64,000 bases of DNA from a virus, in IMG/VR virus record IMGVR_UViG_3300017782_004332, positions 40,926-104,925 of that record. The stretch is one strand, 5' to 3'. Position 1 is the first letter of the stretch, and each line of letters begins with the position of its first letter. A program made the translations under genes and the position numbers. Shown here piece by piece: positions 296 through 16,820 of the stretch. Under the pieces are notes generated by a model. That model had not been told where the DNA came from. It did no database searches and saw nothing but the letters and a program-made list of their open reading frames with translations.

Positions 296-2065
296 ATGGC
301 AGATAACTACATTACAAATTATAACGGTTCTATTACCGCATTAAGCGATAATATTGATGTTAACGGAAAATCAATACAAGGTGCTGAAGTAAACATCAGA
401 ACAAACGCTTCCAACGGTGACGTTAACATTGATGCTAACGGCACAGGTAATGTTGTACTTTCCGGATTGAAATTTCCCAATACTGATGGTAATCCCAATG
501 ATGTATTAATTACAGATAGTTTTGGAAATTTAAGTTTTGCTCCACCATCAGCAGGTGGTGCAAGTGGTAGTTATTATTGGCAAGTTGCCGCAGATGATTC
601 AACAGAAATTAGAGTCCTTTCAGATAACACAATTAAATTTATTGGTGGTACTGGGTTAACTTCTGCATCTGATGCACAAGGTAATATTACATTTAATCAA
701 GTATCAAATGACTTTTCATTAACAGGAGAAGCAACTGCTTCCGCTGTATCATATGATGGTACAGGTAACGTAGCGTTGTCAGTAACACTTGATCATAATG
801 CATTAGATACTGAATACTTAAGATTAGACGGAACAACACAACCGGCAGGAGCATTGAACTTTAATGGACAAAATGTTACAAATGCTGGAGCAATTACAGC
901 AACAAGTTTTACAGGACCACTTACAGGAAACACAACAGGGTATCACACAGGTGACGTAAAAGGTAGTGTTGTTGCAGATGACAGTACACTTATTGTCGAT
1001 GCTGTAGGCGGCGGTGTTCCTTTTACAAGAATATTAAATAAACCAACCGATGTTGCAGGTTATGGAATTACAGATGCACTTGCACTTTCAAGTTTAAGTG
1101 TTGGAGCAGATGCTTCAGCAAGTGGCAGTGGTGGAATTGCATTTAATGATGGAACAGGTGTTTTCACTTACACTCCACCAGACTTTACGCCTTATCTAAC
1201 TGCTGAAACAGATACACTAGATAATGTAACTGGCAGAGGTGCTACAACAACAAACGATATTACAGTTGGAACAATTACAACAACAGGTACTAATGCAATT
1301 ACAACTGCTGATTTAACAATTTCCGGAACTACAATTAGAGGAACTACTTCAAATTCAAATATTGAAATTGATCCTTCTGGAACTGGTGTTGTAGATATTA
1401 AGTCTGGTATTACTATGCCAGATGCGTCTAACTTTACTATTGGTACAGGAAATACTATTGCAGGCGCAGGAGCCAATGTATTAGATGTTGCTTCACAAAC
1501 ATTAACACTAAAAGCAAATACATTTACAGTTAAAAACTTTGCCGATGATAATACGTTGTTGAGTGCAAACAATGGTGGTAATGTTCACTTATACTATAAC
1601 AATGTAGCAAAACTAAACACTAGTGCAGATGGTGTTGCTGTTACAGGTGAACTAGAAGTTTCAACAAATTTAAATGTTACAGGAGACATAGGTAGTGCTA
1701 ACCTAACAAATGGTAGAATTACTTTTGCTACAACAAATGGTGTTCTTACAGACAATCCAAAACTAACTTGGAATGGTGCAACACTTGATGTTAATGGTAC
1801 AGTTGATGCAACTACTGTTGAGACAGAAGGATTAACGATTACACAAAACGATATTAGTGGTACACGTTCAAATGAAAACTTAACTATCGCCGCTAATGGT
1901 ACAGGAAAAGTACAAATTGATGATCCTATGGTAGTTGGTGCAACACTAGAAACAACAATTGGTTCAGATGGCGCGGCGGCTGGATTGCCGGCGGCACCAG
2001 AACGATATTTAAAAATTAACGTTAATGGAGCAGATTATAAAATTCCATTATACTTAATATCATAG
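296..2065 (+). CDS. Tail fibre/virion structural protein
   Basis: 589 aa, G/T/N/S-rich beta repeats, AADDST and 'I...NGTG.V' motifs typical of myophage fibres. Confidence 0.65.
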   Translation: MADNYITNYNGSITALSDNIDVNGKSIQGAEVNIRTNASNGDVNIDANGTGNVVLSGLKFPNTDGNPNDVLITDSFGNLSFAPPSAGGASGSYYWQVAADDSTEIRVLSDNTIKFIGGTGLTSASDAQGNITFNQVSNDFSLTGEATASAVSYDGTGNVALSVTLDHNALDTEYLRLDGTTQPAGALNFNGQNVTNAGAITATSFTGPLTGNTTGYHTGDVKGSVVADDSTLIVDAVGGGVPFTRILNKPTDVAGYGITDALALSSLSVGADASASGSGGIAFNDGTGVFTYTPPDFTPYLTAETDTLDNVTGRGATTTNDITVGTITTTGTNAITTADLTISGTTIRGTTSNSNIEIDPSGTGVVDIKSGITMPDASNFTIGTGNTIAGAGANVLDVASQTLTLKANTFTVKNFADDNTLLSANNGGNVHLYYNNVAKLNTSADGVAVTGELEVSTNLNVTGDIGSANLTNGRITFATTNGVLTDNPKLTWNGATLDVNGTVDATTVETEGLTITQNDISGTRSNENLTIAANGTGKVQIDDPMVVGATLETTIGSDGAAAGLPAAPERYLKINVNGADYKIPLYLIS

Positions 2066-2073
2066 GATAGATA

Positions 2074-2538
2074 ATGACAGACTTTATACAAAATATTAAT
2101 TTAAGTTGGGATAGCACAGAAACTAATCCTGTACTAGCAGGCGACCTTGACACGAATAACAATAACATCACAAGTTCAAATAATGCTAATATTAATATTG
2201 TTCCTAATGGAGCAGGTCAACTAATCCTTGATACTGTTAAAGTAGTAGGTAATACTATTAGTACAGTTAACGGACAACCATTAACATTTAGTAATAACGT
2301 AACATTCTCAGGAACAGTAGAAACAGCAGGTGCAGGTACTCCTGTGCTAGAAAGTAGTACTGATATAGAACTTGATGCAACTAATAGAGTTATTATTAAA
2401 AACTCACCTTTTAAATTAACTTCGTATACTACAACTGCAAGAAACGCTCTTTCAGCACAAAACGGTGATATGATTTATAATTCTACTACAAATAAGTTTC
2501 AAGGATATGCAAACGGTTCTTGGGTCGACTTACATTAA
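2074..2538 (+). CDS. Virion structural (tail fibre-like) protein
   Basis: PVLAGDLDTN motif and C-terminal 'TTTARNALSAQNGDMIYNSTTNKFQGY..W' phage fibre motif. Confidence 0.6.
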   Translation: MTDFIQNINLSWDSTETNPVLAGDLDTNNNNITSSNNANINIVPNGAGQLILDTVKVVGNTISTVNGQPLTFSNNVTFSGTVETAGAGTPVLESSTDIELDATNRVIIKNSPFKLTSYTTTARNALSAQNGDMIYNSTTNKFQGYANGSWVDLH

Positions 2539-2549
2539 GGTAGGATATA

Positions 2550-4613
2550 ATGGCTGATAACAGGTATTACGAATTAGCAACACACAACGAAGCACAATTT
2601 GATGAATTGTTTCTAGAGATAACAGGAACAGCATCAAGCCCAGATACAATTCCAGATAGAGCAGTTGAAAACACAGAATACTTTCAACATAGTCCTGTGC
2701 GTGGAGAATTTTTACTTACTGACGATGAAGCAGAAAATTTAAAAACAGATGCAAGAATAAAATACATTCAACTATCACCAGACAAGTATCCTGATATTTT
2801 TAACGCAACTGAAGATGACCTTCGTGCAGACGTTACAGGTAATGAATATGAAAGATATAGTTTTTCTGTTAAGAACTATCAGTTCTGGGCAAATAGTGGG
2901 GCGATATCAAGTGCATTTGGTACAGGCGCGGCAGATCTTAATCATGCATCAAATCAACTTTATAGAATGGGTCAACAAAGAAACCCATGGATTGTAAGTG
3001 GTACTAGTAGTACAACTGCTATCTCAGATACTATTACACAACGAGGTGCAGGAGAAGATATAGATATTATTTGTGCTGATAACGGAACATGGATTGGCCA
3101 TGTTGAATTTATTAATACAGGTGTTACTAATGCTGTTAATCCAGATGATTACACAGGCGGTAATGTTTTACCCGGCAACGGATATTGTGATGTATTAGAT
3201 GTTATTTTAGATGGACCTTATTATATAGATCCAGATTGGTTTAACGCTGATGCGGCGACTAGATTAACCACACGTTGGGACGGAACAACAGTGCCTGTAG
3301 AAAGTGTTGCTAGAACATGGTGGGGAAACAGTTCTCAACGTTCTGCCGCATTTGCTAGTGCAGGAACAGTAACAATAAGTTCATTTTACACAAGAGATGG
3401 TGTACATGGATCTAACACAACACATCCAACAGGTGCCGCGGCTACACACGGAACTCAGTGTGCAAGTTTGATATACGGTCGTACACACGGTTGGGCATAC
3501 AACGCAAACAAATGGCATTTAAATTTATACGGCGCTAGTAACGCAGGGTCAATTGAGCGTGGGTTTGATATTCAAAAGATTTTCCATGAAAACAAACCTA
3601 ACAATTCAAGATACGGAACTAAAGATCCAACTATAAGTTCAAACAGTTGGGGATATAGAGCAGACAAGTCAGGAACACATTATTATTTTCGTGATAGCGG
3701 AGCAGTAAGTTATCCTGGATCAGTTGACGAACCAGAATTTTTAAAGTATATGGGTATAGATGGAGATGGTGGTCGTTGGAAATCAGAATTTTATGATAAT
3801 AGTTTAACTCAGGCTGGAGAAGAATTAGTAAACAGTGGAGTTATTTTTGTAGTGGCGGCTGGCAACAGTGGACAGATGCAAGTTAATCCAAGCCATCCTA
3901 ATTACGATAATAGAATTGCTAACAATAATACTGATAGTTTTTACAATACCACTTACAGTAGTTTTGGTTATAGTGTTACAGGGTCTACAAATAGAAGAGG
4001 TTTCCCACAACACATTGGTAAATCAGTAAGTCAAAGTTCACAAGGTGATACAGTAAACTTTCCTGCTATTAACGTAGGAGCACTAGATGATTCATTTCAA
4101 ACTGGTCCATTAGAACGTAAAGTTAATTATAGTGATATGGGGAATGCTATTGACTTATACGCACCTGCAGACGGAACACTTGCGGCGGCAGTAGGAACAT
4201 ATGGAACTGATGTTGCACGTCATGATGATACTTACACAGATCTATCAACAACAGATTGTCGTGATACACGCTTTAGTGGTACTTCAGCGGCATGTCCAGT
4301 TGCGGCAGGATTTTTAGCAACTATCTTACAATACAATAGAGGTTGGACTTATACTGATGTACGAAATTGGATTACAACTAATGTTCAAGGTGTTGACAGC
4401 ACCAACGAATTTTATGTAGGCACAGAAGATACTACAGCCGAAAGCGCCGGTTGGGCTGATCGCAACAAACCACAAAATAGTGCAGATGATGTACGAGTTC
4501 TTTATCTAGCACCTTTTACAATTTCAACACCCGACCCACAAACAAACCCTACTGTTTCAATTGGTAATGGATTAACGTTCAGTAAAGGTCTAGTTCTTAA
4601 AAGACGTGTGTAG
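2550..4613 (+). CDS. Subtilisin-like (S8) serine peptidase, probably virion-associated
   Basis: Catalytic motifs ICADNG (D), THGTQCAS (H), VAAGN oxyanion, FSGTSAACP (S). Confidence 0.88.
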   Translation: MADNRYYELATHNEAQFDELFLEITGTASSPDTIPDRAVENTEYFQHSPVRGEFLLTDDEAENLKTDARIKYIQLSPDKYPDIFNATEDDLRADVTGNEYERYSFSVKNYQFWANSGAISSAFGTGAADLNHASNQLYRMGQQRNPWIVSGTSSTTAISDTITQRGAGEDIDIICADNGTWIGHVEFINTGVTNAVNPDDYTGGNVLPGNGYCDVLDVILDGPYYIDPDWFNADAATRLTTRWDGTTVPVESVARTWWGNSSQRSAAFASAGTVTISSFYTRDGVHGSNTTHPTGAAATHGTQCASLIYGRTHGWAYNANKWHLNLYGASNAGSIERGFDIQKIFHENKPNNSRYGTKDPTISSNSWGYRADKSGTHYYFRDSGAVSYPGSVDEPEFLKYMGIDGDGGRWKSEFYDNSLTQAGEELVNSGVIFVVAAGNSGQMQVNPSHPNYDNRIANNNTDSFYNTTYSSFGYSVTGSTNRRGFPQHIGKSVSQSSQGDTVNFPAINVGALDDSFQTGPLERKVNYSDMGNAIDLYAPADGTLAAAVGTYGTDVARHDDTYTDLSTTDCRDTRFSGTSAACPVAAGFLATILQYNRGWTYTDVRNWITTNVQGVDSTNEFYVGTEDTTAESAGWADRNKPQNSADDVRVLYLAPFTISTPDPQTNPTVSIGNGLTFSKGLVLKRRV

Positions 4614-4628
4614 TTTATAATAGTAGCA

Positions 4629-4634
4629 TAAATA
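4629..4634 (+). promoter_or_regulatory. Late promoter box TAAATA
   Basis: Intergenic TAAATA followed by GAGGG SD and ATG 4661. Confidence 0.6.
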
Positions 4635-4660
4635 CTTTTGAGCGAAACAGAGGGTATATT

Positions 4661-4939
4661 ATGGATTTTTTAACGTTTATCGGTGAAGTTGGTTTTCCTA
4701 TAGCAGGAGCAATCGCCGCAGGCGTATTTGTTTTCACAACATTAAAATTTATTCTAGCAAGTGTAACAGGATCTGTACAAGGTCTTAAAAATATTATCAA
4801 TGCACTAGACAATCGTGTGCAAACAATGAATAATGATCTAATTAAAATTGATGCCCTACTATCTCATGTAGTTGGGGTTAAACCTAACATAGAAAGATTA
4901 GCCGCGAACGAAGGCAAGGAAGATGCAAGGAGAGATTAA
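4661..4939 (+). CDS. Small membrane protein, YvrJ-like (GFPI motif) with coiled coil
   Basis: EVGFPIAGAIAAG TM segment then heptad-rich tail; paralogous to 5321..5641. Confidence 0.55.
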   Translation: MDFLTFIGEVGFPIAGAIAAGVFVFTTLKFILASVTGSVQGLKNIINALDNRVQTMNNDLIKIDALLSHVVGVKPNIERLAANEGKEDARRD

Positions 4940-5122
4940 ATGATTTGGATGGACTACCTCGTAGAAAGTTTCCCAGACGGAAGTTTCACAGTTAAAGGTG
5001 ATTGGCCACAAGAAGTAATGGGCAAACAAAAAGATGGTGCCGACAAAGGTTATGCATTATATAAACCAGGTGACAAGTTTGTTGTTGACAACAACGGTAT
5101 TTTAAGGAAAGTAAACGCATGA
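4940..5122 (+). CDS. Hypothetical protein
   Basis: 60 aa ORF abutting neighbours, AGGAG upstream. Confidence 0.55.
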   Translation: MIWMDYLVESFPDGSFTVKGDWPQEVMGKQKDGADKGYALYKPGDKFVVDNNGILRKVNA

Positions 5123-5319
5123 AGAATTTTTATAGAACAGTAACAGGCCATAAACCAACTGACGATTTTTTGCAAAGACAAGGTATCTGGTACGATAGCG
5201 ATATGATTAAATCAGTTCTTATTGGTTTAGCAATAGGAGTTGCACTTGGATTCATTTGGGGATTTGGTGTAGGTGCTCCAGACTTTAGTGGACTCGTATC
5301 CACAGGAATAACAGGATAG
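5119..5319 (+). CDS. Hypothetical membrane protein
   Basis: ATGA overlap with upstream gene; one hydrophobic segment. Confidence 0.55.
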   Translation: MKNFYRTVTGHKPTDDFLQRQGIWYDSDMIKSVLIGLAIGVALGFIWGFGVGAPDFSGLVSTGITG

Positions 5320-5320
5320 T

Positions 5321-5641
5321 ATGACATCAGAGTTAGCGGCGGCAATAAAAGACTTTGGCTTTCCTATTGTTGCGGCAATGGGTTTAGGTTACTTTGTCTA
5401 CTATGTTTGGCAATGGGTAACACTACAAGTTAAACCTGTTCTAAGTGATGCTAGTGCAACACTTATTAAATTAGTAGATCGTATTCGTATGCTAGACAAC
5501 GATATGATTAGACTAAACACAAAATTATCTATGATACTTGAATACTATCAGAAAAAAGGTATGGAACCTGATAAGGATCTAGAAAAAGTTATTACAAAAT
5601 ATCAATCTCAAAGTAATACACTTAAACAAGATAAAAAATAA
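5321..5641 (+). CDS. Small membrane protein, YvrJ-like (GFPI motif) with coiled coil
   Basis: DFGFPIVAAMGLG; shares DR..M.ND.I motif with 4661..4939. Confidence 0.55.
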   Translation: MTSELAAAIKDFGFPIVAAMGLGYFVYYVWQWVTLQVKPVLSDASATLIKLVDRIRMLDNDMIRLNTKLSMILEYYQKKGMEPDKDLEKVITKYQSQSNTLKQDKK

Positions 5642-7687
5642 TTATTTGGTTGTTGCTATAAAGACGCCGTTCCAGTCTTTAGGTAAGTCTTGTGTTTTCT
5701 GATATTTACAACGTTCAATCCACATATCATAATAAGCATCCATTTGTCCATCAAATTGTCCTTTAAGGTCTTTACACATTTTAATAGCAATATCAAAACG
5801 TTGATCTTTATATTCTTTGTGCATATGATCGTGTAGTTCTTTTGCCTTAGCATGATCTTTTATAACAATATCTAATACTGTCCATATACCTATTCCTACA
5901 CTCTTGCCTTTAACAGCAAGATCATCTACTTTTAAGTAGAAGAAATCATTCTTAGTTGCTTTATAAGTTGTTTCACCTACTAATAGCAAACATCCGTATT
6001 CTTTACACTTGCTTTCAATTCTTGCGGCTGTGCTGACGGCATCACCAAGTACATCGTAGGAGTGTCTTGCTGTCGACCCCATTTCTCCAAGGTAACCAAG
6101 TCCGGAGTTAATACCCGCTCCCATACCGATGGCTGGCCTTCCTTCTGCTGTAATTTTTTCATTAAACTTCTCCACTGCTCGTAGCATATTCAATCCAGTG
6201 CGGACTGCACTCTTAGGATGATCTGGATCATCAAGTGGTGCACCATGTACATGCATACTTGCATCTCCTATATACTTAATTATCATTCCGTTTTCGTTTA
6301 AAACAGGTAAAGTAATAGCGTCCATATATGAGTTCATAAGTGTTGTCAATCCTTTTACATCATCTCCAAAACTTTCACCCAAAGGAGTAAAGCCTCTCAG
6401 ATCACTGAAGCAGATTGAAATTTCTTTCTTCATGCCTTCTTTGATCAGTGCAGGATTTTCTTGTAGCATACGCACAACTGTTGGTGATGCATATCCTGCG
6501 AACTGTTTCTTAATTGCTTGTTTTTCAAAGAACTCTTTGGAAAATCGATTGAACACAGAATGGAAACCAACAATAGTAGTTACTAGTACTATCCAACTCC
6601 AATCCCATAACTGTAGATGCCCTATAAACGCTGTATAAGCACCGTACACAGGCGCTATGATTACTGTAAGCATAGTAGTACCAACGACCCAGTAAGGCGC
6701 TTTAAACGCTATTATAATTAGAATAAGACCTATAATAGTAGCAGTTATATACTCTAAAAACGTAGCATAATCAAAACGTACAATAGTATCCCCATTAATG
6801 ATAGTTTGGAGACTTGTGCCTATAAGTTCGTGTGCATATCGTTCTCCGTTTGGAGTAGCAATAATACTGCCTATACCTTCTGCTGTAGTTCCAATAATAA
6901 CTGTTTTGCCTGCAAATTGTGTGTAATCTTGTTCTGTTATACTGTAGGTAGGAAACTGCTTGTTCCAACGTAGCCATATCTGTCCATTTGCATCTGTTTT
7001 GATTGTGGCGTACTTTGGAATACGCATTGCAGTAATACCGCCTTCTTGCGTTTTAACTTGATAACTTGGATCTCCAACAGCAACTCTGATGGCTTCAATT
7101 GCTATAGCAGGATATGTTTCGTTGCCTACACGTACAATAAGTGGCATTCTACGTACAACCCCGTCTATCTCTGAACCTGTGTTTAAAACTCCAACACCGT
7201 CTGCATTTAATCCTAATAATTCTATTGGTCCTAACATGCCAGGCCATTCAAACAACCATGGCATAGGATCGCCTATCTTAGCAACACCTCGTGGTACAGA
7301 ATTCTTGTTTGCATTTCGCGAACCTACTTGTCCTATGACTACAGCATTACCTACTAATGCTTGAGCAAGTTCCATGTCACCACCAAGTCTATCTTCCTCT
7401 GAAAATAATATAGGCAGTACAATTACTCCTGCACCTGACTCACGTAACTTCCATATAACATCAGCGAGTACTGAACGTTTCCAAGGCCATTGCCCATACT
7501 GCTCGATCGCTTTTTCGTCTATCTCAAGTATGGCGATATCTTCGCTAACAACTGGAGTATCGTATTGTTGAACAACATCAAATGCTTTTAGTCTCAATAG
7601 TTGCTTAACATAAGGATCTGAAAATCCGTATATTGTAAGAAATGCTAAAGTAATCAGGGCGGTTGCCCAGTGGGTTACATATTTCAT
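5642..7687 (-). CDS. CHASE2-domain class III adenylate/guanylate cyclase
   Basis: CHASE2 motifs IDEKAI..GQWPW.R and DGVVRR; three TM helices; cyclase motifs FSDLRGFT, KYIGDA, GMGAGINSG, GDAVSTAARIES. Start moved from 7693 to 7687 to fit TAAATA-N5-ATG. Confidence 0.92.
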   Translation of the reverse strand: MKYVTHWATALITLAFLTIYGFSDPYVKQLLRLKAFDVVQQYDTPVVSEDIAILEIDEKAIEQYGQWPWKRSVLADVIWKLRESGAGVIVLPILFSEEDRLGGDMELAQALVGNAVVIGQVGSRNANKNSVPRGVAKIGDPMPWLFEWPGMLGPIELLGLNADGVGVLNTGSEIDGVVRRMPLIVRVGNETYPAIAIEAIRVAVGDPSYQVKTQEGGITAMRIPKYATIKTDANGQIWLRWNKQFPTYSITEQDYTQFAGKTVIIGTTAEGIGSIIATPNGERYAHELIGTSLQTIINGDTIVRFDYATFLEYITATIIGLILIIIAFKAPYWVVGTTMLTVIIAPVYGAYTAFIGHLQLWDWSWIVLVTTIVGFHSVFNRFSKEFFEKQAIKKQFAGYASPTVVRMLQENPALIKEGMKKEISICFSDLRGFTPLGESFGDDVKGLTTLMNSYMDAITLPVLNENGMIIKYIGDASMHVHGAPLDDPDHPKSAVRTGLNMLRAVEKFNEKITAEGRPAIGMGAGINSGLGYLGEMGSTARHSYDVLGDAVSTAARIESKCKEYGCLLLVGETTYKATKNDFFYLKVDDLAVKGKSVGIGIWTVLDIVIKDHAKAKELHDHMHKEYKDQRFDIAIKMCKDLKGQFDGQMDAYYDMWIERCKYQKTQDLPKDWNGVFIATTK

Positions 7688-7692
7688 ACTCA

Positions 7693-7798
7693 TATTTACC
7701 TAGTCAGACCGTCAAATTTCCAACATTCTTGTTGTACAAATTATTTCGACCGTCAAAATTTTGTACCAGCATTATTTGTGGGGTGGCGTTGGTAAATA
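7693..7798. promoter_or_regulatory. Divergent late promoter region (TAAATA on - at 7693-7698 and on + at 7793-7798) with GACCGTCAAA direct repeat
   Basis: Two outward-facing TAAATA boxes; GACCGTCAAA at 7707-7716 and 7748-7757. Confidence 0.65.
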
Positions 7799-7814
7799 CG
7801 TATGGAGGGCAATA

Positions 7815-8285
7815 ATGCGTAATAACATAACATTTAGAGTAGTACCACTAATCGGACTATTAATCGTTACTTTAACAGCAAATTCTGTTGCTAGTGAACT
7901 AGTACATGAATTCAAGAATCCTTCCTTCTCAGGACAGGGTTATAGTAACCATGTCTTGTCAATAGAACAATTACAATTCCAACGTAAAAAAGAAGCACAG
8001 GAAAAGGCAGAGGCAGATGCGGCCAAGGCTAAGCGTGAAGCAGAAAGCACTACACTAGCAAAGTTCTTGAACAATGTGGAATCTCGAATTTATGCTCAAC
8101 TCTCTAAACAGTTAGTAGATAATATGTTTACTGACGATGGAGACACATCAGGCACTGCTGAGATTGAAGGTGCAACAATTTATTGGGTCAAAGATACTAC
8201 CTCGGATACTATTACTGTAACAATTACAAATGAAGACGGTACTACCACAGAGATAGTTGTTCCATTAAGCGGATTTGGATTTTAA
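7815..8285 (+). CDS. csgF: Curli assembly protein CsgF-like
   Basis: Signal peptide then SELVHEFKNPSFSG (cf. CsgF F.F.NP.FGG) and FL..VESRIYAQLS; start at ATG 7815 after GGAGGG. Confidence 0.82.
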   Translation: MRNNITFRVVPLIGLLIVTLTANSVASELVHEFKNPSFSGQGYSNHVLSIEQLQFQRKKEAQEKAEADAAKAKREAESTTLAKFLNNVESRIYAQLSKQLVDNMFTDDGDTSGTAEIEGATIYWVKDTTSDTITVTITNEDGTTTEIVVPLSGFGF

Positions 8286-9324
8286 GAAAATGAGTAAGAT
8301 ATTGGGTCTGTTTGTGTTATTAACACTACTAGGTGGCTGTGCGACTACTATGCCCGATTCTATGGTCAAAGATCCACAAGCGGCAAGAAGTCCTATTGCA
8401 AGTATTTTAAAAACAACACCTGAGTTAGACGGACCATTAATCACTATAGCACTTTATAGTTTTACAGATAAAACAGGACAACGTAAGCCTAGTCAAAATT
8501 TTAGTCAATTAAGTTCAGCAGTTACACAAGGTGCTGAAGTTTGGGTCATTGACGCACTACAAAAAGTAGGTAATGGAACTTACTTTACAGTTTTAGAAAG
8601 AATAGGATTAGATAATTTAGTAAAAGAAAGGCAATTAATTAGATCAACAAGGGAGATATATGAAGGCAAGAAAGGGCAGAATAAATTAAAACCAATGAAG
8701 TTTGCAGGTTTAATTTTAGAAGGCGGTGTTGTTGGTTATGACTCGAACATAACCAGTGGTGGCACAGGAGCAAGATACTTTGGTATCGGTGCTAACACAC
8801 AATATCGTACTGACAAAGTTACAGTTGCAATAAGAATTGTGAGTGTACAAACTGGAGAAGTATTATTAAGTGTAGCCACTGAAAAAACAATCGCCAGTTA
8901 TTCGTCCGGAGCGGATGTATTTAGGTTTCTTGATTTAGGGACAAAAGCATTAGAAATTGAGGCTGGTGCGGCAATCAATGAACCGACCAATTATGCTGTG
9001 AGGTCCGCTATTGAAGCGGCTATAGTTGAATTGGTGAAAAATGGAGAAATAAAAGGTCTTTGGAAGTTTAAAGGAAAAGTGTACAAAGAAAAAGTTGTAG
9101 AGGTGCCGAACCAACACAATGAAGTCAAAGTAGATACTCCTTTACCAAACCTCCGCCCACTGCCAGACGTTGAGGCGTTTAAAAAGTGGCCGGGTCAGAC
9201 TTTGTATTGTTCAGAGGATAATCTGTGTATACCATCAGATGTTGCTGTGATGCAGTTCAAGTATGAAAGACTGAGACAAGAAAACAAAGAAAACAAAGAT
9301 AGCGAGGATAATAATGATGAATAA
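8275..9324 (+). CDS. csgG: Curli secretion channel CsgG-like lipoprotein
   Basis: Lipobox LLGGC; FTDKTGQRKP, SSAVTQGA, VLERIGLDNLVKERQLIR, EGGVVGYD, YRTDKVTV, NEP motifs of CsgG. Confidence 0.92.
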   Translation: MDFKKMSKILGLFVLLTLLGGCATTMPDSMVKDPQAARSPIASILKTTPELDGPLITIALYSFTDKTGQRKPSQNFSQLSSAVTQGAEVWVIDALQKVGNGTYFTVLERIGLDNLVKERQLIRSTREIYEGKKGQNKLKPMKFAGLILEGGVVGYDSNITSGGTGARYFGIGANTQYRTDKVTVAIRIVSVQTGEVLLSVATEKTIASYSSGADVFRFLDLGTKALEIEAGAAINEPTNYAVRSAIEAAIVELVKNGEIKGLWKFKGKVYKEKVVEVPNQHNEVKVDTPLPNLRPLPDVEAFKKWPGQTLYCSEDNLCIPSDVAVMQFKYERLRQENKENKDSEDNNDE

Positions 9325-10021
9325 ATCATTTGCAATAAGAAATATCCTTTTTGTGGCTATGTTAATCTTTATTTCACCGGTGCAGGCGAATGACATTTAC
9401 ATTCAACAGTCAGGTGACAATTTGGATTTAGATATATCACAAGACGGACAAAACAACGTAATCGGTACATCACAAACTGGTGTGACTCTTACCGGTAACG
9501 CCATGACGTTTAACATTGACCAAATTGGTGGTGCTAACGTTGTATCAGCAATAGTTAAAGGTGTAACTTACACAGGTAATATTGATCTTACTGGTGACAG
9601 TAATGATGTAGCATTACTCTGTGATAGTGCAGGAGCAGGAAACTGTGATACTGTAAGTTTGAGTATTGACATAACTGGTTCAAGTGCAGATATTAATGTA
9701 AGTGTAGGTGAAGCGGCAGACGCAGAAACCTTCACTGGTACAATAGATATCACAAGTGGTGCATCTGAAACAGTTACACTAACAGTAGACGGTAAAAGTG
9801 CAATAGCAGATATTGACATTTCAAACAGTTTAGGTAGTGCAGGTAATACAGCAGTGATTGACATTAATGATGATGGCGATGTCAACGGACACACTTTAAC
9901 ACACAGTCATACAGGAGATGGCGGATTGATTAATATTACGCAGAGCGGGTTATACGATAATATAATTAATCTTACAACCAGTGGTGACAGTGCTGATATC
10001 GACATAACGCAGGACGATTAA
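9314..10021 (+). CDS. Secreted curlin-repeat-like protein
   Basis: Signal peptide (VQA|ND); NDIYIQQSGDN, DISQDGQNN, NITQSG, DITQDD repeats; follows csgG. Confidence 0.72.
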   Translation: MMNKSFAIRNILFVAMLIFISPVQANDIYIQQSGDNLDLDISQDGQNNVIGTSQTGVTLTGNAMTFNIDQIGGANVVSAIVKGVTYTGNIDLTGDSNDVALLCDSAGAGNCDTVSLSIDITGSSADINVSVGEAADAETFTGTIDITSGASETVTLTVDGKSAIADIDISNSLGSAGNTAVIDINDDGDVNGHTLTHSHTGDGGLINITQSGLYDNIINLTTSGDSADIDITQDD

Positions 10022-10022
10022 C

Positions 10023-11129
10023 ATGCTAAAACATGTTCTCATACATACCGTCCTCTTATTTGGTTTTTCATTCCCTGCCCTTGCGACTATTGGCGATGTT
10101 ATCCAACAAGAAGGTAACGCTGTCATTGAACGTGAGGCAGGAGAAATAGTTACAAGCCAAAAAGATACTGATGTGTTTAGTATGGACACAGTATTAACAC
10201 AGCAAGGAGCAACTTCTATTCAATTTATAGACGATACAAGAGTTGACGTTACTCCGCATAGTAAATTAGTAATAGACGATTTTGTTTATGATCCTAATTC
10301 TAAAACAGGTGCTCTGTCGTTAAAAGCATCTTTAGGAACTGTTAGATACGCAAGTGGACAAATAGCAAAAAATTCAAGACAAAATGTCAAGATAAAAACA
10401 CCAACAGCAGTGATTGGTGTTAGAGGAACAGATTTTACCATGACCGTCGATGAGACTGGTAGTACTATGGTAATCCTACTGCCCAGTTGTACAACAAATG
10501 GGATATGTATAGTAGGAGAAATTTCAGTGGAGTCAGACGTGGGTATAGTAATACTCAATCAGGCCTTCCAAGTTACTTCTGTTGACACTCCTAAGAGTGC
10601 TCCACTGAAACCCTTATTGTTAGATCCAACTAATTTGATCATTAATAATATGTTGATTATACGCAAACCTGTGTATGACGATGAACAACAAGAATATGAA
10701 AGAGTTAGAAAGTTAGGCGACTTCTTAGGCGTTGACTTTTTATCCTTTGATGAACTTAATACAAACTACTTTGCAGAAAGTGAAAAAGGTCTTTGGATGA
10801 CCGATTTAGACATAGACTTCTTAGGTCATAACTTTCTTGCAAACGTATTAGATCAAATTAATCAAGCATTAGCAAGACTTATGCGTGGAGCATTAGACTC
10901 AAGACAAAAGGGTATACAGTTAGGTAAAGATCCAGAAACAGGAATAGAATTGTATGATCAAAACCCAGACTGGGTATTAAGACGTGATGACGGATTAGGA
11001 AACTTTTATGAATTACGTTTAGATCAACAGTATGGTTATAATATTAATATGCAACAGAACGATTTTGAATACAGAGACTACCAACTTGGAGATGGACAAA
11101 ATGAAATTGACATTGTCCAAACACAATAA
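10023..11129 (+). CDS. FecR-domain secreted protein
   Basis: Signal peptide; D.V.T, F.DDT.V...S.L.IDDF.YDP, G..RY.SG, KTPTAVIGVRGTDF FecR signature. Confidence 0.85.
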   Translation: MLKHVLIHTVLLFGFSFPALATIGDVIQQEGNAVIEREAGEIVTSQKDTDVFSMDTVLTQQGATSIQFIDDTRVDVTPHSKLVIDDFVYDPNSKTGALSLKASLGTVRYASGQIAKNSRQNVKIKTPTAVIGVRGTDFTMTVDETGSTMVILLPSCTTNGICIVGEISVESDVGIVILNQAFQVTSVDTPKSAPLKPLLLDPTNLIINNMLIIRKPVYDDEQQEYERVRKLGDFLGVDFLSFDELNTNYFAESEKGLWMTDLDIDFLGHNFLANVLDQINQALARLMRGALDSRQKGIQLGKDPETGIELYDQNPDWVLRRDDGLGNFYELRLDQQYGYNINMQQNDFEYRDYQLGDGQNEIDIVQTQ

Positions 11130-12592
11130 TGTTTGAGAGATTTATTATAAGATTGGCACTTGTATTATTTGTACTTATGGTGATGTTAGCATCTAAACCT
11201 GTACAGGCTAATGACGCATTTATATATTATAAAAATAGTGGTACCTATGCTACTACAAGCCAGTACAACAACTTAAAAACAGAACTTGAAGATGCAGGCT
11301 TTACTGTTTCAAGTAGCACAAGTGGTACTGTAAGTTCAAGTGATGTGTCAGGTCAGGACCTTGTGATTGATATCACAGGTGGTTCAAACTGTGGTAGTAC
11401 TTGTAAATCAGTGTATGACAGTTATGTTAGTGGTGGTGGTAAATTAGTTATAGTAGGAACCTACGGAGCAACCAACAGAAATAGCAGTATAGAAGCACTG
11501 ATCGAAACTAAGATGAGTGTAGGAAGTTTCACTTTAGGTGGAGGTTGTAGTACTTGTTATAGTTCAGTTGCTGTAGGAAATTACGCTTCAACAGGTGTAG
11601 CAGGTGAGAATGTTTTACCAGGTACAGACCACTATATGTACAGCGTATCTGGTGGTACCGCAATGGCTAATAACTCCACCAGTAGTTCTAATATAAGAAT
11701 GTGGCACAAATGGGACTATGGTAGTAATGGTGGAAGTGTAGCAGTTACTTTTGGTTATGGACAATTTCTTTCAACTCACACGTATGCAAGTAATATGAAT
11801 GACTTCTTGTATCGAGCAATGCAAGAAGAAGGATTAATTACAACAGCGTCTTATACTTCAAGCATCAGTAACGCACAGACCACACAAATGACAACATCAA
11901 GAGGTGTAACACACAATGGTAATGGAATATACATTAATCAAGTAGGCAACAGTAATTCACTTACTATTGTACAAGACGGCAATGATAACTTAATAGCAGG
12001 TGTTGGTAGTACAACAAACAGTTTAGTTGATGCAGATATTACAGGAAATAACAACACTACTACACTAAAACAAAAAGGTAACAACAATGTTATGTTGTTT
12101 GATATTACAGGCGATTCTAATACGACAACTGTTGATCAAGGTAGTACATCAGGTGCAGATGATAATAGAGTTGAGTTTGATATTAATGGCGACACTAATA
12201 CAACAAGTATAACACAAAATCATAACAACGGTATAGGAACTAATGGACACTTCTTTGCATTAGATTTAGATGGTGACAACAACAATGTTTTAGCAAGTCA
12301 ACTCAATGACGGAGATAAAAAAGCATTCCTAAGTGTACAAGGTGATGATAACGACATTGATCTAATACAACAAGGTGCAGGTTCGCACTATGCAGAAATT
12401 GCTGTTGGCAGTGATCAAACTGTTGACATTACACAAGACGGCAGTGGACAACATAACACTTCAGTGTCTATGTCAGGGTTTAGTGCAACACTTGACCTTG
12501 ATCAATCTGGTTCAACAAATCAAACATATTCAATAAACCAATCTTGTATAAATGCAAATGGTTGTGGTACAACTACTGTAACACAACAATAA
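11129..12592 (+). CDS. Secreted protein with N-terminal globular domain and C-terminal curlin-like repeats
   Basis: Signal peptide (VQA|ND); IYINQVGNSN, IVQDGNDN, KQKGNNN, VQGDDN, ITQDGSG repeats. Confidence 0.75.
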   Translation: MFERFIIRLALVLFVLMVMLASKPVQANDAFIYYKNSGTYATTSQYNNLKTELEDAGFTVSSSTSGTVSSSDVSGQDLVIDITGGSNCGSTCKSVYDSYVSGGGKLVIVGTYGATNRNSSIEALIETKMSVGSFTLGGGCSTCYSSVAVGNYASTGVAGENVLPGTDHYMYSVSGGTAMANNSTSSSNIRMWHKWDYGSNGGSVAVTFGYGQFLSTHTYASNMNDFLYRAMQEEGLITTASYTSSISNAQTTQMTTSRGVTHNGNGIYINQVGNSNSLTIVQDGNDNLIAGVGSTTNSLVDADITGNNNTTTLKQKGNNNVMLFDITGDSNTTTVDQGSTSGADDNRVEFDINGDTNTTSITQNHNNGIGTNGHFFALDLDGDNNNVLASQLNDGDKKAFLSVQGDDNDIDLIQQGAGSHYAEIAVGSDQTVDITQDGSGQHNTSVSMSGFSATLDLDQSGSTNQTYSINQSCINANGCGTTTVTQQ

Positions 12593-12602
12593 TAAATACG
12601 TT

Positions 12603-13022
12603 ATGAACAAGAGTAGGTGGCAACGTTTTAAAGAATGGTGGACCATTGATCATGTAGTTGATCTTTGTGTTGATGCATTGCTTTTAATATGGGAAGTAGT
12701 TTCAAGTCCTATTCTTATTGTTGTTAGAATTATTAGACACTTTATAGGTGATTGGTTTGTTGGCGGACTTAAACGTATTGCCCGAGCAATAGTTCATTGG
12801 TTTGCACGTAAGAGAGCATACCGCAAAGAACACGGACACGGAATATTTAGAACCTATTGGTACCTAATACTAACAAGTCCTTTTATAGCATTTTTCCTTT
12901 TTATTTTTCTTGCAATGATAACAGGTATTGCACAAGACCTTCCTGAAATGTTAGAACTGCTAATACGTGGTTGTGATTCTTTACAGCCTGCCGCAGAACA
13001 ATATTGGTGCAATATTAACTAA
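12603..13022 (+). CDS. Hypothetical membrane protein
   Basis: Hydrophobic segments; TAAATA at 12593-12598. Confidence 0.55.
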   Translation: MNKSRWQRFKEWWTIDHVVDLCVDALLLIWEVVSSPILIVVRIIRHFIGDWFVGGLKRIARAIVHWFARKRAYRKEHGHGIFRTYWYLILTSPFIAFFLFIFLAMITGIAQDLPEMLELLIRGCDSLQPAAEQYWCNIN

Positions 13023-13054
13023 ATATATTTGTTACAAGAGAAGGGCGAGGGTAA

Positions 13055-13537
13055 TTGATTGATCCAATATCAGCGGTCATGGCCGCAACATCAGCCTTCA
13101 GCACAGTCAAGAAGTTTGTAAGTGCTGGACAAGAGTTTGAACAAGTAGCAGGCCAACTTGGCAAATGGTACACAGCAGTCAGTGACTTCCGCCACGCACA
13201 ACAAGAACAAAAGAAACCACCCTTATTCAAAAAATTATTTGCCGCAGGTAGTGTAGAAGAAGAAGCACTACAACTCCTAATACACGAAAAGAAAATCATG
13301 GAGCAAGAAAAAGAACTTGCGGTGTTGCTGAACCTACGTTTCGGATACGGGACAATGGAAGAACTCAAAGAGATGCGTCGAAAGATTAGAACCCAGCGTG
13401 AACGCACCATATACAGACAAGCACAACGAAAGAAAGCATTCATTGAAGCAGTGTCAATTGCCGTATTGTTAGGTGTACTTGTTGTTGCTGTAGGTATTAT
13501 GTTTTGGTTTATAGGAAAGGCGAAAGGTTTATTTTAA
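13055..13537 (+). CDS. Hypothetical coiled-coil protein with C-terminal TM
   Basis: 160 aa ORF after TAAATA 13020 and GAGGG. Confidence 0.6.
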   Translation: MIDPISAVMAATSAFSTVKKFVSAGQEFEQVAGQLGKWYTAVSDFRHAQQEQKKPPLFKKLFAAGSVEEEALQLLIHEKKIMEQEKELAVLLNLRFGYGTMEELKEMRRKIRTQRERTIYRQAQRKKAFIEAVSIAVLLGVLVVAVGIMFWFIGKAKGLF

Positions 13538-13837
13538 TTGAGATATGTTTATGAGAACTATGTTTTTGTAAATGATAACAACAAAGGTATACTTTACAAA
13601 GACAACACATTGGTGTTCATGGGAAATGCCTGGACTGGCATAAACATATTCTTAAATTCTACAAACCATGCTCAAGAAGTCCGAGACATGTTTAAATCAC
13701 AATTAGATCAACGAGAGCAAATTAGATTCAAAGCAGAATCTAAAAAACCCAAAGACCCTGATCCTATACAACGACCAGAGCCAAAGAAAGATCCAGTGTT
13801 AAGGCGTTCAAGGAATGACCGGAGACTTGTTAGGTGA
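13538..13837 (+). CDS. Hypothetical protein
   Basis: ORF abutting neighbours, TTG start. Confidence 0.5.
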   Translation: MRYVYENYVFVNDNNKGILYKDNTLVFMGNAWTGINIFLNSTNHAQEVRDMFKSQLDQREQIRFKAESKKPKDPDPIQRPEPKKDPVLRRSRNDRRLVR

Positions 13838-14052
13838 TACACGCATTTATGTTAGTAGTATTGATTGGTGGAGACTTACAACCAGCACCTATGTATTTTA
13901 GAAGTATTGATGTTTGTCAATACTATGCTAAACGCATACCAAGACAGTATGGAAACTATTCACACAGTAGTTTAGTACCTTCTGAACACAGAGTTACAGC
14001 ATATTGTAAGCCTGTAAAAGTCCAGGACGGACCTAACATATACGATCATTAA
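13834..14052 (+). CDS. Hypothetical protein
   Basis: GTGA overlap; hydrophobic N-terminus, two Cys. Confidence 0.5.
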   Translation: MIHAFMLVVLIGGDLQPAPMYFRSIDVCQYYAKRIPRQYGNYSHSSLVPSEHRVTAYCKPVKVQDGPNIYDH

Positions 14053-14081
14053 GATGGTAAATACAAAACAAAGGAGTTGTT

Positions 14082-14303
14082 ATGGAAAAAGTAATTAATA
14101 TCAAAGAAAATGCTCGTGTAGAAGACGAGGATTATGTAAAGTCAAAAGAAGAACGCAAAGCAGTTGAGGCTAATAAGGCTCCAGCAGTTGAAAAAGGCGT
14201 TGACCCTTCAATTGAATATACAGATGAAAATAGAGAAGAAGTAAATGATTCTGATCTAGAAAAACCTGTTCACGCAGTTGCTACAAGTAAAAATAGAAAA
14301 TAA
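14082..14303 (+). CDS. Hypothetical charged protein
   Basis: TAAATA 14058 and AAGGAG SD. Confidence 0.55.
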   Translation: MEKVINIKENARVEDEDYVKSKEERKAVEANKAPAVEKGVDPSIEYTDENREEVNDSDLEKPVHAVATSKNRK

Positions 14304-14629
14304 TAGGTTGTGATATGCAGGCTTTGGTCTACAGTCTGCAACAACCAAAATTCCCTATCACTTTCAATAATATTATATTTCTTCTTAATATAAGTTTTAG
14401 AAAAATCTATATTCCAGTGTGCAATATGATCTATTATTCCTAGCATTAGTGCAATCTGAAAATCTACAAAAAAAGCACTTATTACAAATGTTAATAATGA
14501 ATGATGTAGATAATGTATTTGTGCTCGTGGATTAAAATAGAATTGCTTAACCGATCCTGTTACAAAATATCTTTGTAATGCTAAGTCGGCTATTGTGTGT
14601 TTGATACAGTACCAGAAGAAAAGTTCCAT
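14270..14629 (-). CDS. DUF3307-like membrane protein
   Basis: KHTIADLALQ, H..H, HW.IDF.K, DQ.LH motif pattern; TAAATA on - strand at 14665-14670. Confidence 0.7.
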   Translation of the reverse strand: MELFFWYCIKHTIADLALQRYFVTGSVKQFYFNPRAQIHYLHHSLLTFVISAFFVDFQIALMLGIIDHIAHWNIDFSKTYIKKKYNIIESDREFWLLQTVDQSLHITTYYFLFLLVATA

Positions 14630-14712
14630 CAACAGTAATTACCCTCGCTCGTTGGGGACATTGTTATTTACTGGTTTTGGAAAAATAATAAACACGTAGT
14701 TTAAAAAAGTGG

Positions 14713-14741
14713 TTGACCTTTGAGTAGAGTTGTGTTACTAT
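14713..14741 (+). promoter_or_regulatory. Sigma70-like early promoter
   Basis: TTGACC-N17-TACTAT. Confidence 0.65.
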
Positions 14742-14778
14742 ATAAACATAGTTAGGAATTAGACAAGAGGAGTATTCC

Positions 14779-15042
14779 ATGGCTTACTGGACTCACACTA
14801 AAAATCCAATCGGCGCATTTACGGAAAAAGATGTAGGAAACATCTTTGAGTATTCTGTGAATGACGATCAGTTTAATATCGACATGCCCCACAAAATATG
14901 GGTAGGCGGATTAGTGAATGACTCCGGTTTTAGATATGGCCAAGTTAAAAAAACTGTGGCGTATATCGTTACCGACGAAGACGATTATGGATTGCCAGTT
15001 GTTCAAAAATGGCAAATTAAAAATCAGCGGGAGTATAGTTAA
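14779..15042 (+). CDS. Hypothetical protein
   Basis: GAGGAG SD, 87 aa. Confidence 0.6.
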   Translation: MAYWTHTKNPIGAFTEKDVGNIFEYSVNDDQFNIDMPHKIWVGGLVNDSGFRYGQVKKTVAYIVTDEDDYGLPVVQKWQIKNQREYS

Positions 15043-15049
15043 TATCTTA

Positions 15050-15126
15050 CTGCCCGTAGAACAACTGGATAGTTCATCAGTCTTCTAAACTGAGGGTTGC
15101 AGGTTCGAATCCTGCCGGGCAGGCCA
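15050..15126 (+). tRNA. tRNA-Arg(TCT)
   Basis: Acceptor CTGCCCG/CGGGCAG, anticodon arm TCAGT-CTTCTAA-ACTGA, GGTTCGAATCC T-loop, encoded CCA. Confidence 0.95.
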
Positions 15127-15261
15127 ATTCGTAGCACAGAAGTGCTACATTTAAGGAAAGATCTGGGGATCCGTGAGCGTTGTTTGTATGGGACTCCGTG
15201 TTCATAATGAGCCAGATCATCAAGTAGGCGGGTTGGGGGCTGTACTTGGAATAATTAAAAG

Positions 15262-15291
15262 TTGACAAATGACTAAATATACGTATATAAT
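15262..15291 (+). promoter_or_regulatory. Sigma70-like promoter (TTGACA-N18-TATAAT) with nested TAAATA
   Basis: Read directly; ATG follows at 15300 with no SD. Confidence 0.6.
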
Positions 15292-15299
15292 TAATTGTT

Positions 15300-15863
15300 A
15301 TGCCTAAATATGATAATTGGAATAGTTCTGACGCAGTAGATAGATCGTTACTTGATAACGACATATACTACCTAAGCGGAGAAATTACTAACGAAAACGT
15401 TGGTGAATGTATCAAATGGATTCTTAGTGCAAATTTAGTTAAGAAACCAAAGAGAACCTTAGAACTTTATATTAACACAACCGGCGGAGATCTATATGAG
15501 ATGTTTGCTTTAATTGATGTAATGAAAAACAGTTATCACAATATAAGCACAGTAGGTGTTGGTGCTGTTATGAGTGCCGGATTTATGATTTTTGCAAGTG
15601 GTACAAAAGGATATCGTTGGATTGGTAAGAACACAGGTATTATGAATCATCAACATTCAGACACAATGGAATCTAAAATGCATGACATGAAAGCACAGAT
15701 GAAAGAAAATAATAATTGCGAACAAAGATGTATGCAAATTCTTAAAGATGCAACTGGAATGAGTGTCCAGGAAGTTAACAGTAAATTTATTAAAAATCCT
15801 AGTGATCAATATTACACAGCCAAACAATTGGTTGACCTAGGTATAGCAGACGATATATTATAG
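15300..15863 (+). CDS. Divergent ClpP-like protease subunit
   Basis: LYINTTGG, VMSAG (Ser), IMNHQ (His), YYTA..LV.LG.AD.I. Confidence 0.82.
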   Translation: MPKYDNWNSSDAVDRSLLDNDIYYLSGEITNENVGECIKWILSANLVKKPKRTLELYINTTGGDLYEMFALIDVMKNSYHNISTVGVGAVMSAGFMIFASGTKGYRWIGKNTGIMNHQHSDTMESKMHDMKAQMKENNNCEQRCMQILKDATGMSVQEVNSKFIKNPSDQYYTAKQLVDLGIADDIL

Positions 15864-15870
15864 AGGTAAC

Positions 15871-16359: not shown

Positions 16360-16380
16360 ATACATTGATAGGAGAAAAAA

Positions 16381-16815: not shown

Positions 16816-16820
16816 CTGCC

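Follow-up and report, generated by a model that had tools for sequence, protein, structure and literature searches.

A curli module of the pelagiphage type, with FecR-domain and CHASE2 cyclase genes, in an uncultured marine myophage related to T4

Genes of the curli module and their linkage

The DNA analyzed here is a stretch of 64,000 nucleotides (hereafter the window) comprising bases 40926-104925 of the 105-kb IMG/VR virus record IMGVR_UViG_3300017782_004332, for which CheckV completeness is 30%. Between positions 4661 and 13537 it encodes a curli-type export module in which genes for two small paralogous membrane proteins are followed by a CHASE2 cyclase gene on the minus strand and then by genes for CsgF, CsgG, a curlin-like protein, a FecR-domain protein, a second curlin-repeat protein and two further small membrane proteins. 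The main genes had been placed in an earlier note made from the letters of this DNA alone, and Pfam matches to CHASE2/Guanylate_cyc, CsgF, CsgG, FecR and Curlin_rpt were found at the positions which it gave. Position 4661, with which that note opened its interval, does belong to the module, as it opens the first of two phrog_18771 genes that travel with the cluster. The note had also spoken of a phage, and by homology the record is indeed read as one, being an IMG/VR virus entry in which the neighbours of the module are homologues of T4-like marine myophage proteins and in which tail-fibre-like proteins also occur. The features of the module are as follows, with the evidence for each in parentheses.

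4661..4939, plus strand: small membrane protein of 92 amino acids (aa), phrog_18771 (PHROG 4.5e-30)
5321..5641, plus strand: paralogue of the 92-aa gene, 106 aa, phrog_18771 (PHROG 4.3e-28)
5642..7693, minus strand: receptor nucleotide cyclase, 683 aa (Pfam CHASE2 3.4e-42, Guanylate_cyc 1.7e-16; phrog_35576 1.2e-194)
7694..7814: divergent spacer of 121 bp between the cyclase ATG and the csgF ATG
7815-8285, plus strand: CsgF homologue, 156 aa from the ATG, alternative start 7761 (Pfam CsgF 3.3e-17)
8290-9324, plus strand: CsgG outer-membrane lipoprotein, alternative TTG start 8275 (Pfam CsgG 1.7e-50)
9314..10021, plus strand: curlin-like secreted protein Cur1, 235 aa (family alignment, AlphaFold2 (AF2) model, VIA-align, summed repeats)
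10023..11129, plus strand: secreted FecR-domain protein, 368 aa (Pfam FecR 1.2e-09; phrog_37870 1.1e-125)
11129..12592, plus strand: second curlin-repeat protein Cur2, 487 aa (Pfam Curlin_rpt 6.7e-10, 39.2 bits, above cut-off)
12603..13022, plus strand: small membrane protein, 139 aa (hydrophobic segments)
13055..13537, plus strand: 160-aa protein with a C-terminal transmembrane (TM) segment, phrog_32327 (PHROG 2.6e-09)

The cluster as such is already published and the window holds another member of it with a rearranged layout. The suspicion in the earlier note that the parts might not be new proved correct and extends further than the parts, since the full cluster including FecR and the cyclase has been reported (PMC9599517). 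Zaragoza-Solas et al. (2020) were the first to report CsgF and CsgG, together with three unnamed genes, in pelagimyophages and proposed a role in 'sibling capture' (PMC7029224). Buchholz et al. (2022) proposed a pore for lysis timing and observed no clumping of cells infected with phage Melnitz (PMC9004378). Wittmers et al. (2022) described the full CsgF-CsgG-CsgA/B-FecR-CsgA/B-adenylate cyclase set, along with a 'histidine kinase', in podo- and myo-pelagiphages. They found the module at all 65 GOV2 stations, with transcripts, and at about 0.1% of assembled GOV2 viral proteins; their 'HK' occurs in one or two copies, always before CsgF, FecR is treated as an iron regulator and CHASE2 goes unmentioned (PMC9599517). 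The annotation of Melnitz, a Methylophilales phage, reads CsgF, CsgG, curlin repeat, FecR, curlin repeat and cyclase, and the cluster is also found in Pelagibacter phage HTVC008M.

Compared with this pelagiphage module (HTVC008M, Melnitz and the HTVC023P-type podophages), all of the genes are present in the window and their order is kept except for the relocated and inverted cyclase, with the window proteins 55-75% identical to those of Melnitz and 46-58% identical to those of HTVC008M. The window differs in that the cyclase and the two small genes lie upstream with the cyclase inverted, a layout seen in only 2 of 61 related loci, and in two additions, a C-terminal tail on CsgG and an N-terminal domain on the second curlin.

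Related viral loci were retrieved through FecR (the best 80 of 280), through the cyclase (the best 80 of at least 578) and through CsgG (the best 80 of at least 582, together with an initial, smaller scan); as best-scoring loci they are mostly myophage-type relatives. CsgF, CsgG, Cur1 and FecR were colinear in 76/76 FecR-retrieved loci and the two curlin-repeat proteins were conserved in 72-79 of the 80. The cyclase was present in 61 of these 80 loci, and 18 of the 19 loci without it end no more than 430 bp past the last module gene; the remaining cyclase-less locus, L082, is flanked by 3.4 kb, and in L083, a near-identical relative of it, the cyclase lies 5 kb downstream. Retrieval from the other side gave the same picture, with FecR, CsgG and CsgF in 44/44 cyclase-retrieved loci having at least 7 kb upstream, and with FecR in 55/55 and the cyclase in 24/24 of the CsgG-retrieved loci that had room for them. 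The synteny check called for in the earlier note thus indicates that cyclase and curli genes do not assort independently. The curli genes, FecR and the CHASE2 cyclase are one conserved unit with near-obligate linkage.

The position of the cyclase within the unit is variable. Among the 61 loci it was downstream on the same strand in 53, upstream on the same strand in four, upstream and inverted, as in the window, in two, and downstream and inverted in two, and in several lineages it has shifted together with the two small phrog_18771 genes. In podophages the cyclase has been described as less constant (Wittmers et al., PMC9599517).

Homologous modules were also observed on larger viral contigs of 221,447 bp (L083, rated 100% complete), 245,550 bp (L141) and 357,559 bp (L171), and contigs of about 340-347 kb are recorded for the FecR homologues P0058 and P0081. 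The module is also carried by phages much larger than the cultured ones of 140-150 kb.

When bacterial genomes were scanned with the FecR profile, close relatives were found only on phage-like contigs in metagenome-assembled genomes (MAGs) of five unrelated taxa (L084-L089), in bins labelled Flavobacteriaceae, Pelagibacter, Rhodobacteraceae, Pirellulales and Legionellales. These contigs carry the complete phage module including phrog_18771, and in all likelihood they come from phages and were binned with bacterial genomes by mistake. L090, which is 5.9 kb long and binned with Bacteroidetes, is of ambiguous origin. No genuinely bacterial copy of the entire module came out of the scan.

The two paralogous single-pass phrog_18771 proteins also belong to the unit. 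The 92-aa protein has an N-terminal hydrophobic segment with a GFPI motif followed by a predicted helix; it is 75% identical to its homologue in Melnitz and 47% to that in HTVC008M, and was found in no other cultured phage. Its gene is preceded at 32 nt by TAAATAC and has a homologue in 63 of the 80 FecR-retrieved loci. The 106-aa gene, which is separated from it by two tiny open reading frames (ORFs) and ends right against the stop codon of the cyclase gene running towards it, likewise has a homologue in 63 of the 80 loci, always adjoining that of the 92-aa gene. By position these proteins are probably the 'HK' or 'histidine kinase' of Wittmers et al.; they cannot be kinases, as they are only 92 and 106 aa long and consist of one hydrophobic segment and a helix. 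At the other end of the module, the 139-aa protein has no family match in Pfam or PHROG; it is 86-92% identical in the closest relatives and was found in 10 of the 80 loci, often directly before the cyclase. The 160-aa protein, with homologues in 7 of the 80 loci, is an occasional companion whose membership in the module is uncertain.

The export genes themselves were readily assigned. The CsgF match scores 63.3 bits against a cut-off of 25.8 and covers nearly the whole profile, and no direct sequence match to the protein was found in the PDB. CsgF begins with a signal peptide, and its mature N-terminus contains the sequence F-K-N-P-S-F-S-G, which resembles the segment of E. coli CsgF that plugs the CsgG barrel. 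CsgG matches the solved E. coli CsgG over residues 7-281 (phmmer 3e-52) and has the lipobox LLGG-C. Its relatives are 264-351 aa long; the charged C-terminal tail of about 70-85 aa (9067-9321) belongs to no recognisable family and occurs only in the window, in L004 and in L017-type relatives.

Cur1 has a signal peptide ending VQA/ND and a conserved cysteine pair (Cys103/Cys111). Alone it is below threshold against Curlin_rpt (0.016) and passes, with 23.6 bits, once neighbouring repeats in frame are summed; its family alignment (A4) contains repeats of the form xQxGxxNxxxxxQ. The AF2 model, with a predicted local distance difference test (pLDDT) score of 84.9, is all-beta and forms a beta-solenoid. 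Its top match in VIA-align was Pontibacter CsgA (8c50_A, Z 19.2, 189 residues, 23% identity), with a runner-up at Z 16.0 and 8% identity; the CsgA match came solely from VIA-align wide and has a high root-mean-square deviation of 8.5 Å. Foldseek against the PDB gave nothing at E <= 1e-3 and weak beta-helix matches only. The modelled fold of Cur1 is a beta-solenoid closest to solved CsgA.

Cur2 begins with a signal peptide with the same cleavage context (VQA/ND), followed by an N-terminal domain of about 235 aa and by curlin repeats at about 265-487, with three Curlin_rpt repeat matches and conserved Cys473/Cys479. The N-terminal domain (11210-11910) is dispensable, given that homologues range from 227 to 506 aa and those of 227-347 aa lack it; it belongs to no recognisable family, and in the ESM Atlas it matched viral curlin clusters only and gave no fold lead.

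Signal-peptide-like starts were observed on CsgF, both curlins and the FecR protein, together with the lipobox on CsgG. No match to CsgE (PF10627) was found at E <= 0.1 in the 105-kb record, itself a fragment, in agreement with the earlier note, and CsgE has also been reported absent from phage modules (PMC9599517). As read from these sequences, the export set would be a minimal one consisting of a CsgG channel, CsgF and two Sec-exported curlin-repeat proteins, without CsgE. With the curli system of E. coli and Salmonella (csgBAC-csgDEFG) the window shares CsgG, CsgF and Sec-exported curlin-repeat subunits with a beta-solenoid fold; it differs in that its subunits are larger (235 and 487 aa) and have conserved cysteine pairs, and in that no CsgE was found. 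FecR, the CHASE2 cyclase and the small membrane proteins of the phage module are absent from bacterial curli operons (PMC9599517).

The FecR-domain protein and bacterial CHASE2 loci

The 368-aa FecR protein consists of a signal peptide, a FecR/PupR-type beta domain at about 24-200 with conserved Cys156/Cys162, and a conserved C-terminal half at about 205-368. Its AF2 model has pLDDT values of 80-92 at residues 22-200 and of 30-65 beyond. In Foldseek the model matched 4m0n (BDI_1681, 6e-4) and PupR (6ovk_R, 1e-3) with probability 1.0; both are periplasmic domains of anti-sigma regulators and the matches cover the confident part of the model. Neither a cytoplasmic anti-sigma domain nor a TM anchor was found, the FecR domain starting at about residue 24, right after the cleavable-looking signal peptide. 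Lacking both, the protein is a FecR-domain protein and not a FecR regulator. Residues 200-368 have no Pfam match at E <= 5. A curlin-like C-terminus, suggested by eye from the pattern YNINxQQ...GDGxNEIDIxQ (alignment A1), gained no support from hhalign, Pfam or AF2; with hhalign, comparison of the FecR and Cur1 profiles gave nothing at the FecR C-terminus and a 6% probability in another region.

The pairing of FecR with CHASE2 was then found outside phages. A distant FecR homologue lies in an operon with a CHASE2 cyclase on a genuine bacterial contig of 583 kb (L092). From the phylum of this bacterium we sampled 20 CHASE2 loci, all CHASE2 cyclases; they are best-scoring matches within one phylum and are phylogenetically non-independent. 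In 14 of the 20 a FecR-domain ORF lies upstream on the same strand, ten times directly adjacent, and no FecR match was found elsewhere in the 376 kb of these loci. Comparable arrangements have been described in other bacteria. In Burkholderiales and P. aeruginosa it is a CHASE2 histidine kinase that follows a LysM-FecR protein (PMC5192318), and in S. meliloti the locus tag of the FecR-domain gene SMc02177 adjoins that of the CHASE2 cyclase CyaD1, SMc02176 (PMC5498481). The remark in the earlier note that CHASE2 cyclases often neighbour FecR genes in bacteria is therefore well founded, with 14/20 sampled loci, L092 and PMC5192318 behind it. As FecR with CHASE2 is an ordinary bacterial operon, the phage FecR is better read as the periplasmic partner of the cyclase than as an iron regulator.

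In six of the bacterial loci FecR and the cyclase are separated by the gene of a secreted protein of about 940 aa with a C-terminal Phe (L091 and L092, 95% identical to each other, and, from the 20 sampled, L103, L104, L114 and L115). The full cassette in L092 (8634-17481) comprises a 392-aa secreted protein, a FecR protein of 225 aa, the 940-aa protein and the CHASE2 cyclase, and was also observed in the other five loci; in L092 it is followed by a response regulator with a PglZ domain. Neither the 392-aa protein nor the 940-aa protein (939 aa in one case) matches a Pfam family. From its signal peptide and C-terminal Phe only, the latter may be an outer-membrane protein. The CHASE2 cyclases of S. 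meliloti sense their signal only with the help of the outer-membrane barrel NsrA (PMC13001267).

What the bacterial operons (those of the sampled phylum, 'BiofilmReg' of Burkholderia, P. aeruginosa and SMc02177/CyaD1) share with the phage module is a secreted FecR protein whose gene closely precedes that of a TM-CHASE2-3TM receptor. With about 225-330 aa, the FecR partners of bacteria are shorter and lack the C-terminal half of the phage protein. No curli genes were noticed at the sampled bacterial FecR-CHASE2 loci, where no systematic search for them was made. With the FecA-FecR-FecI and PupB-PupR systems the window protein has the periplasmic FecR-domain fold in common (6ovk_R, 4m0n). In the FecA and PupB systems the partner of the FecR domain is an outer-membrane protein, which it binds at the periplasmic signalling domain, and this fits the role of a trans-envelope coupler; unlike FecR and PupR, the window protein has no anti-sigma domain or TM helix, and its output would be a cyclase and not a sigma factor.

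The cyclase, its promoter region and the phage context

The cyclase has the architecture of a CHASE2 receptor, with an N-terminal TM segment, a periplasmic CHASE2 domain at about 19-321, three TM segments at about 312-382, a class III domain at about 422-598 as output and an 80-aa C-terminal tail, the TM positions being read from hydrophobic segments in the sequence. The two metal-binding aspartates (D431, D477), the adenine-type pair Lys473/Asp547 and the transition-state Arg558 of a class III enzyme are all present, these roles being assigned by analogy with Rv1625c-type enzymes. D431, K473, D477 and R558 are invariant in 33 phage cyclase sequences, and D547 is present in the subfamily to which the window belongs.

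The spacer between the cyclase and csgF measures 121 bp, slightly more than the roughly 110 bp of the earlier note, which had both units start at TAAATA boxes within it. On the csgF side this stands: GGTAAATA at 7793-7798 lies 22 nt before the csgF ATG at 7815, placed as in front of many gene starts in the window. The second GGTAAATA, at 7698-7693 on the minus strand, overlaps the cyclase ATG itself and is placed unlike the others. Two direct copies of GACCGTCAAAWTT were found in the spacer at 7707-7719 and 7748-7760, 41 bp apart. The boxes and both ACCGTCA copies are conserved in L004 and L005, the two relatives with the same divergent layout, and the GACCGTCAAAWTT pair is absent from loci with other layouts; it could serve as an operator or be left over from the rearrangement.

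The late promoter octamer of T4, TATAAATA, does not occur in the whole window (0 found against 8.8 expected). TAAATA, on the other hand, lies no more than 60 nt upstream of 21 of 92 ATG-initiated ORFs, as compared with 2.4 ± 1.6 at random positions, and (A/G)TAAATAC is found 22-32 nt before many start codons (for example at 4629, 7793, 14058, 36524, 39457, 51450 and 58139). Judged by this placement it is probably the late promoter core of the lineage, and the copies before csgF and the 92-aa gene fit the main placement class. A scan for sigma-70 promoters and terminators over 4400-13700 gave fewer promoter-like sites than shuffled sequences. Late joint expression, as the earlier note proposed, is a plausible reading for the plus-strand genes and a conjecture for the cyclase, whose TAAATA lies over the start codon. 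Co-regulation of the two units, which the note also proposed, is conjectural, since only the csgF box is normally placed and the divergent layout occurs only in the window and two close relatives.

The gene upstream of the module is listed here.

2550-4613, upstream of the curli module: 687-aa S8 subtilase-like (Peptidase_S8) gene (Pfam, PHROG)

Homology of the product to proteins of T4-like phages of Synechococcus and Prochlorococcus extends along its entire length, at about 40% identity; these proteins are annotated as hypothetical or virion structural (the latter term from the S-TIM54 annotation), and as a homologue of such a cyanomyophage protein it was ruled out as part of the module. Pfam gave no match to Gp23 over the record and was likewise silent on control genomes. 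Downstream of the module four tRNA genes lie at 15050-18271 (Arg-TCT, Leu-TAA, Trp-CCA and Met-CAT), and Rfam over 1-20000 returned tRNAs only, with no tmRNA or glutamine riboswitch near the module, unlike in Melnitz. A ClpA/ClpB-like AAA+ ATPase at 53502-55772 (phrog_4871, 2.6e-249) is about 43% identical to homologues in jumbo phages, for example PA5oct and Sinorhizobium phage Phosso.

Proposed function and alternatives

The explanation that we favour, and consider on balance probable, is that the locus is a pelagiphage-type viral type VIII (curli) module of an uncultured T4-like marine myophage, that it joins two blocks of bacterial origin, and that it acts in the following way. From TAAATA promoters, probably of late type, the infected cell would insert a CsgG-CsgF pore in its outer membrane, through which the curlin-like proteins would be exported to the surface. 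The FecR-domain protein would act in the periplasm as an accessory or ligand-presenting partner of CHASE2, and not as an iron regulator, and would tune the synthesis of a cyclic nucleoside monophosphate (cNMP) to the condition of the envelope or the secretion machinery. In the phage module, genes for curli export seem to have been joined to a sensor pair that already existed in bacteria, FecR having come to lie between the two curlin genes. By analogy with FecR and PupR it is reasonable to suppose that FecR may couple the outer-membrane apparatus to CHASE2. Fibre formation, contact between FecR and CHASE2, the kind of signal sensed, the product made and the advantage gained by the phage are parts of this account that we infer, and a relay from curlin through CsgG and FecR to the cyclase, as put forward in the earlier note, would be a step of the same kind.

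Several results count against this explanation. Contact of FecR with CHASE2 or CsgG is putative; a complex prediction with CHASE2 residues 27-325 (A3) and mature FecR residues 22-368 (A2) scored 0.00 against a mark of 0.32, and weighs neither way. Melnitz-infected cells showed no clumping (PMC9004378). The restriction of the bacterial sample to related best-scoring loci of one phylum, given above, also has to be admitted. As the cyclase has no fixed place relative to the curli genes, lying upstream or inverted in 8 of 61 loci, it forms a transcription unit of its own. In the active site, the transition-state Asn of the GDxVN motif is replaced by S554 (GDAVSTAARIE) in the window, in Melnitz and in 16/33 sequences altogether; the other 17/33, including HTVC008M, keep the Asn and have Thr or Ser at 547. 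On these alignments the phage cyclases appear as two conserved active-site variants, and with Ser in place of the transition-state Asn the activity may be low or altered.

A reader for the cyclase product is also missing from view. The Pfam cNMP_binding domain was found neither in the present phage fragment, nor in the complete Melnitz, HTVC008M and 221-kb relative, nor in two further module-bearing records. When 41 genomes were sampled from the family to which the Pelagibacter MAG G200 belongs, only two had it, leaving 39 without it, and a class III cyclase domain was likewise found in only two; the usual cyclic-nucleotide signalling seems largely missing from this family. An output of cyclic AMP (cAMP), which the earlier note had envisaged, and its reading by some protein are conjectural, given S554 and the lack of a cNMP-binding domain in the phage records and in 39/41 SAR11-family genomes.

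These same observations would suit a cyclase domain that is not a signalling enzyme at all and serves as a weakly active or inactive scaffold, consumes ATP or makes another nucleotide product: S554 is shared by 16/33 family members including the window and Melnitz, cNMP-binding proteins were not found in the searched phage records, 39/41 SAR11-family genomes lack these, and 39/41 lack class III cyclases. We think this quite improbable, as the whole family shares the metal-binding Asp pair, Lys473, Asp547 and Arg558, Asn is retained in the sister subfamily, and conservation of the Ser within its own subfamily points to selection on the active site. Closer to the explanation preferred here, and differing from it mainly in the role of FecR and the cyclase, is a module for fibres only, in which a curli-like coat aggregates neighbouring hosts ('sibling capture') or blocks other phages, and FecR and the cyclase regulate expression in the way that cAMP acts on E. 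coli csgD. It has been proposed before (PMC7029224, PMC9599517), and the minimal export set is complete, with signal peptides and curlin repeats on both curlins. The absence of aggregation with Melnitz (PMC9004378) speaks against it, and with neither CsgD, at which no search was aimed, nor CRP or another cNMP-binding regulator found in the searched phages or in most SAR11-family genomes, the regulatory logic of E. coli would have to work without visible parts; we regard this proposal as doubtful.

The lysis-timing proposal, in which CsgG with or without CsgF is a gated outer-membrane channel or 'pinholin' that aids lysis, and the curlins, FecR and cyclase are accessory or regulatory, was made for Melnitz on grounds of structure and synteny, and the lack of clumping in Melnitz cultures agrees with it (PMC9004378), as do the holin-like size and topology of the single-pass phrog_18771 proteins that accompany the module. 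CsgG, however, resides in the outer membrane, whereas holins and pinholins act on the inner membrane. A simple pore would need neither of the curlins, which are conserved in 72-79 of the 80 loci and the first of which has a CsgA-like predicted fold, and CsgF retains its N-terminal plug motif, so that we consider a lysis pore unlikely indeed. To an iron or uptake module we give hardly any credence. FecR would here be a regulator of the ferric-citrate type and ungated CsgG would import nutrients or cofactors, as suggested by Wittmers et al. (2022, PMC9599517) and Zaragoza-Solas et al. (2020); the name of the Pfam family and the absence of the CsgE gate are in keeping with this, but the FecR protein consists of a signal peptide and a FecR domain without an anti-sigma domain or TM anchor, and its bacterial counterparts adjoin CHASE2 receptors and not iron transport genes.

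Returning to a curli pore coupled through FecR to the CHASE2 cyclase, a wider conjecture, which we offer tentatively and think rather unlikely, is that an outer-membrane component, a secreted FecR protein and a CHASE2 receptor make up a general three-tier trans-envelope cNMP device resembling FecA-FecR-FecI. The phage would have wired this device to the curli pore to report the state of the fibre or pore in hosts, such as SAR11, without cyclases or canonical cNMP receptors. If so, a phage-encoded cNMP reader not yet known must exist, for which the phrog_18771 membrane proteins would be possible candidates. Should its host be SAR11-like, the phage would introduce a messenger for which neither side has a canonical reader.

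To the published description of the module the present analysis adds the reading of FecR as a CHASE2 partner, the CsgA-like predicted fold of Cur1, the division of the cyclases into Ser and Asn types, the apparent lack of a cNMP receptor and a new reading of 'HK'. The module is abundant in the ocean and gives infected SAR11 and OM43 cells a secretion system which they otherwise lack. FecR as a partner of CHASE2 would link this phage module to the CHASE2 receptors, a widespread family of sensors.

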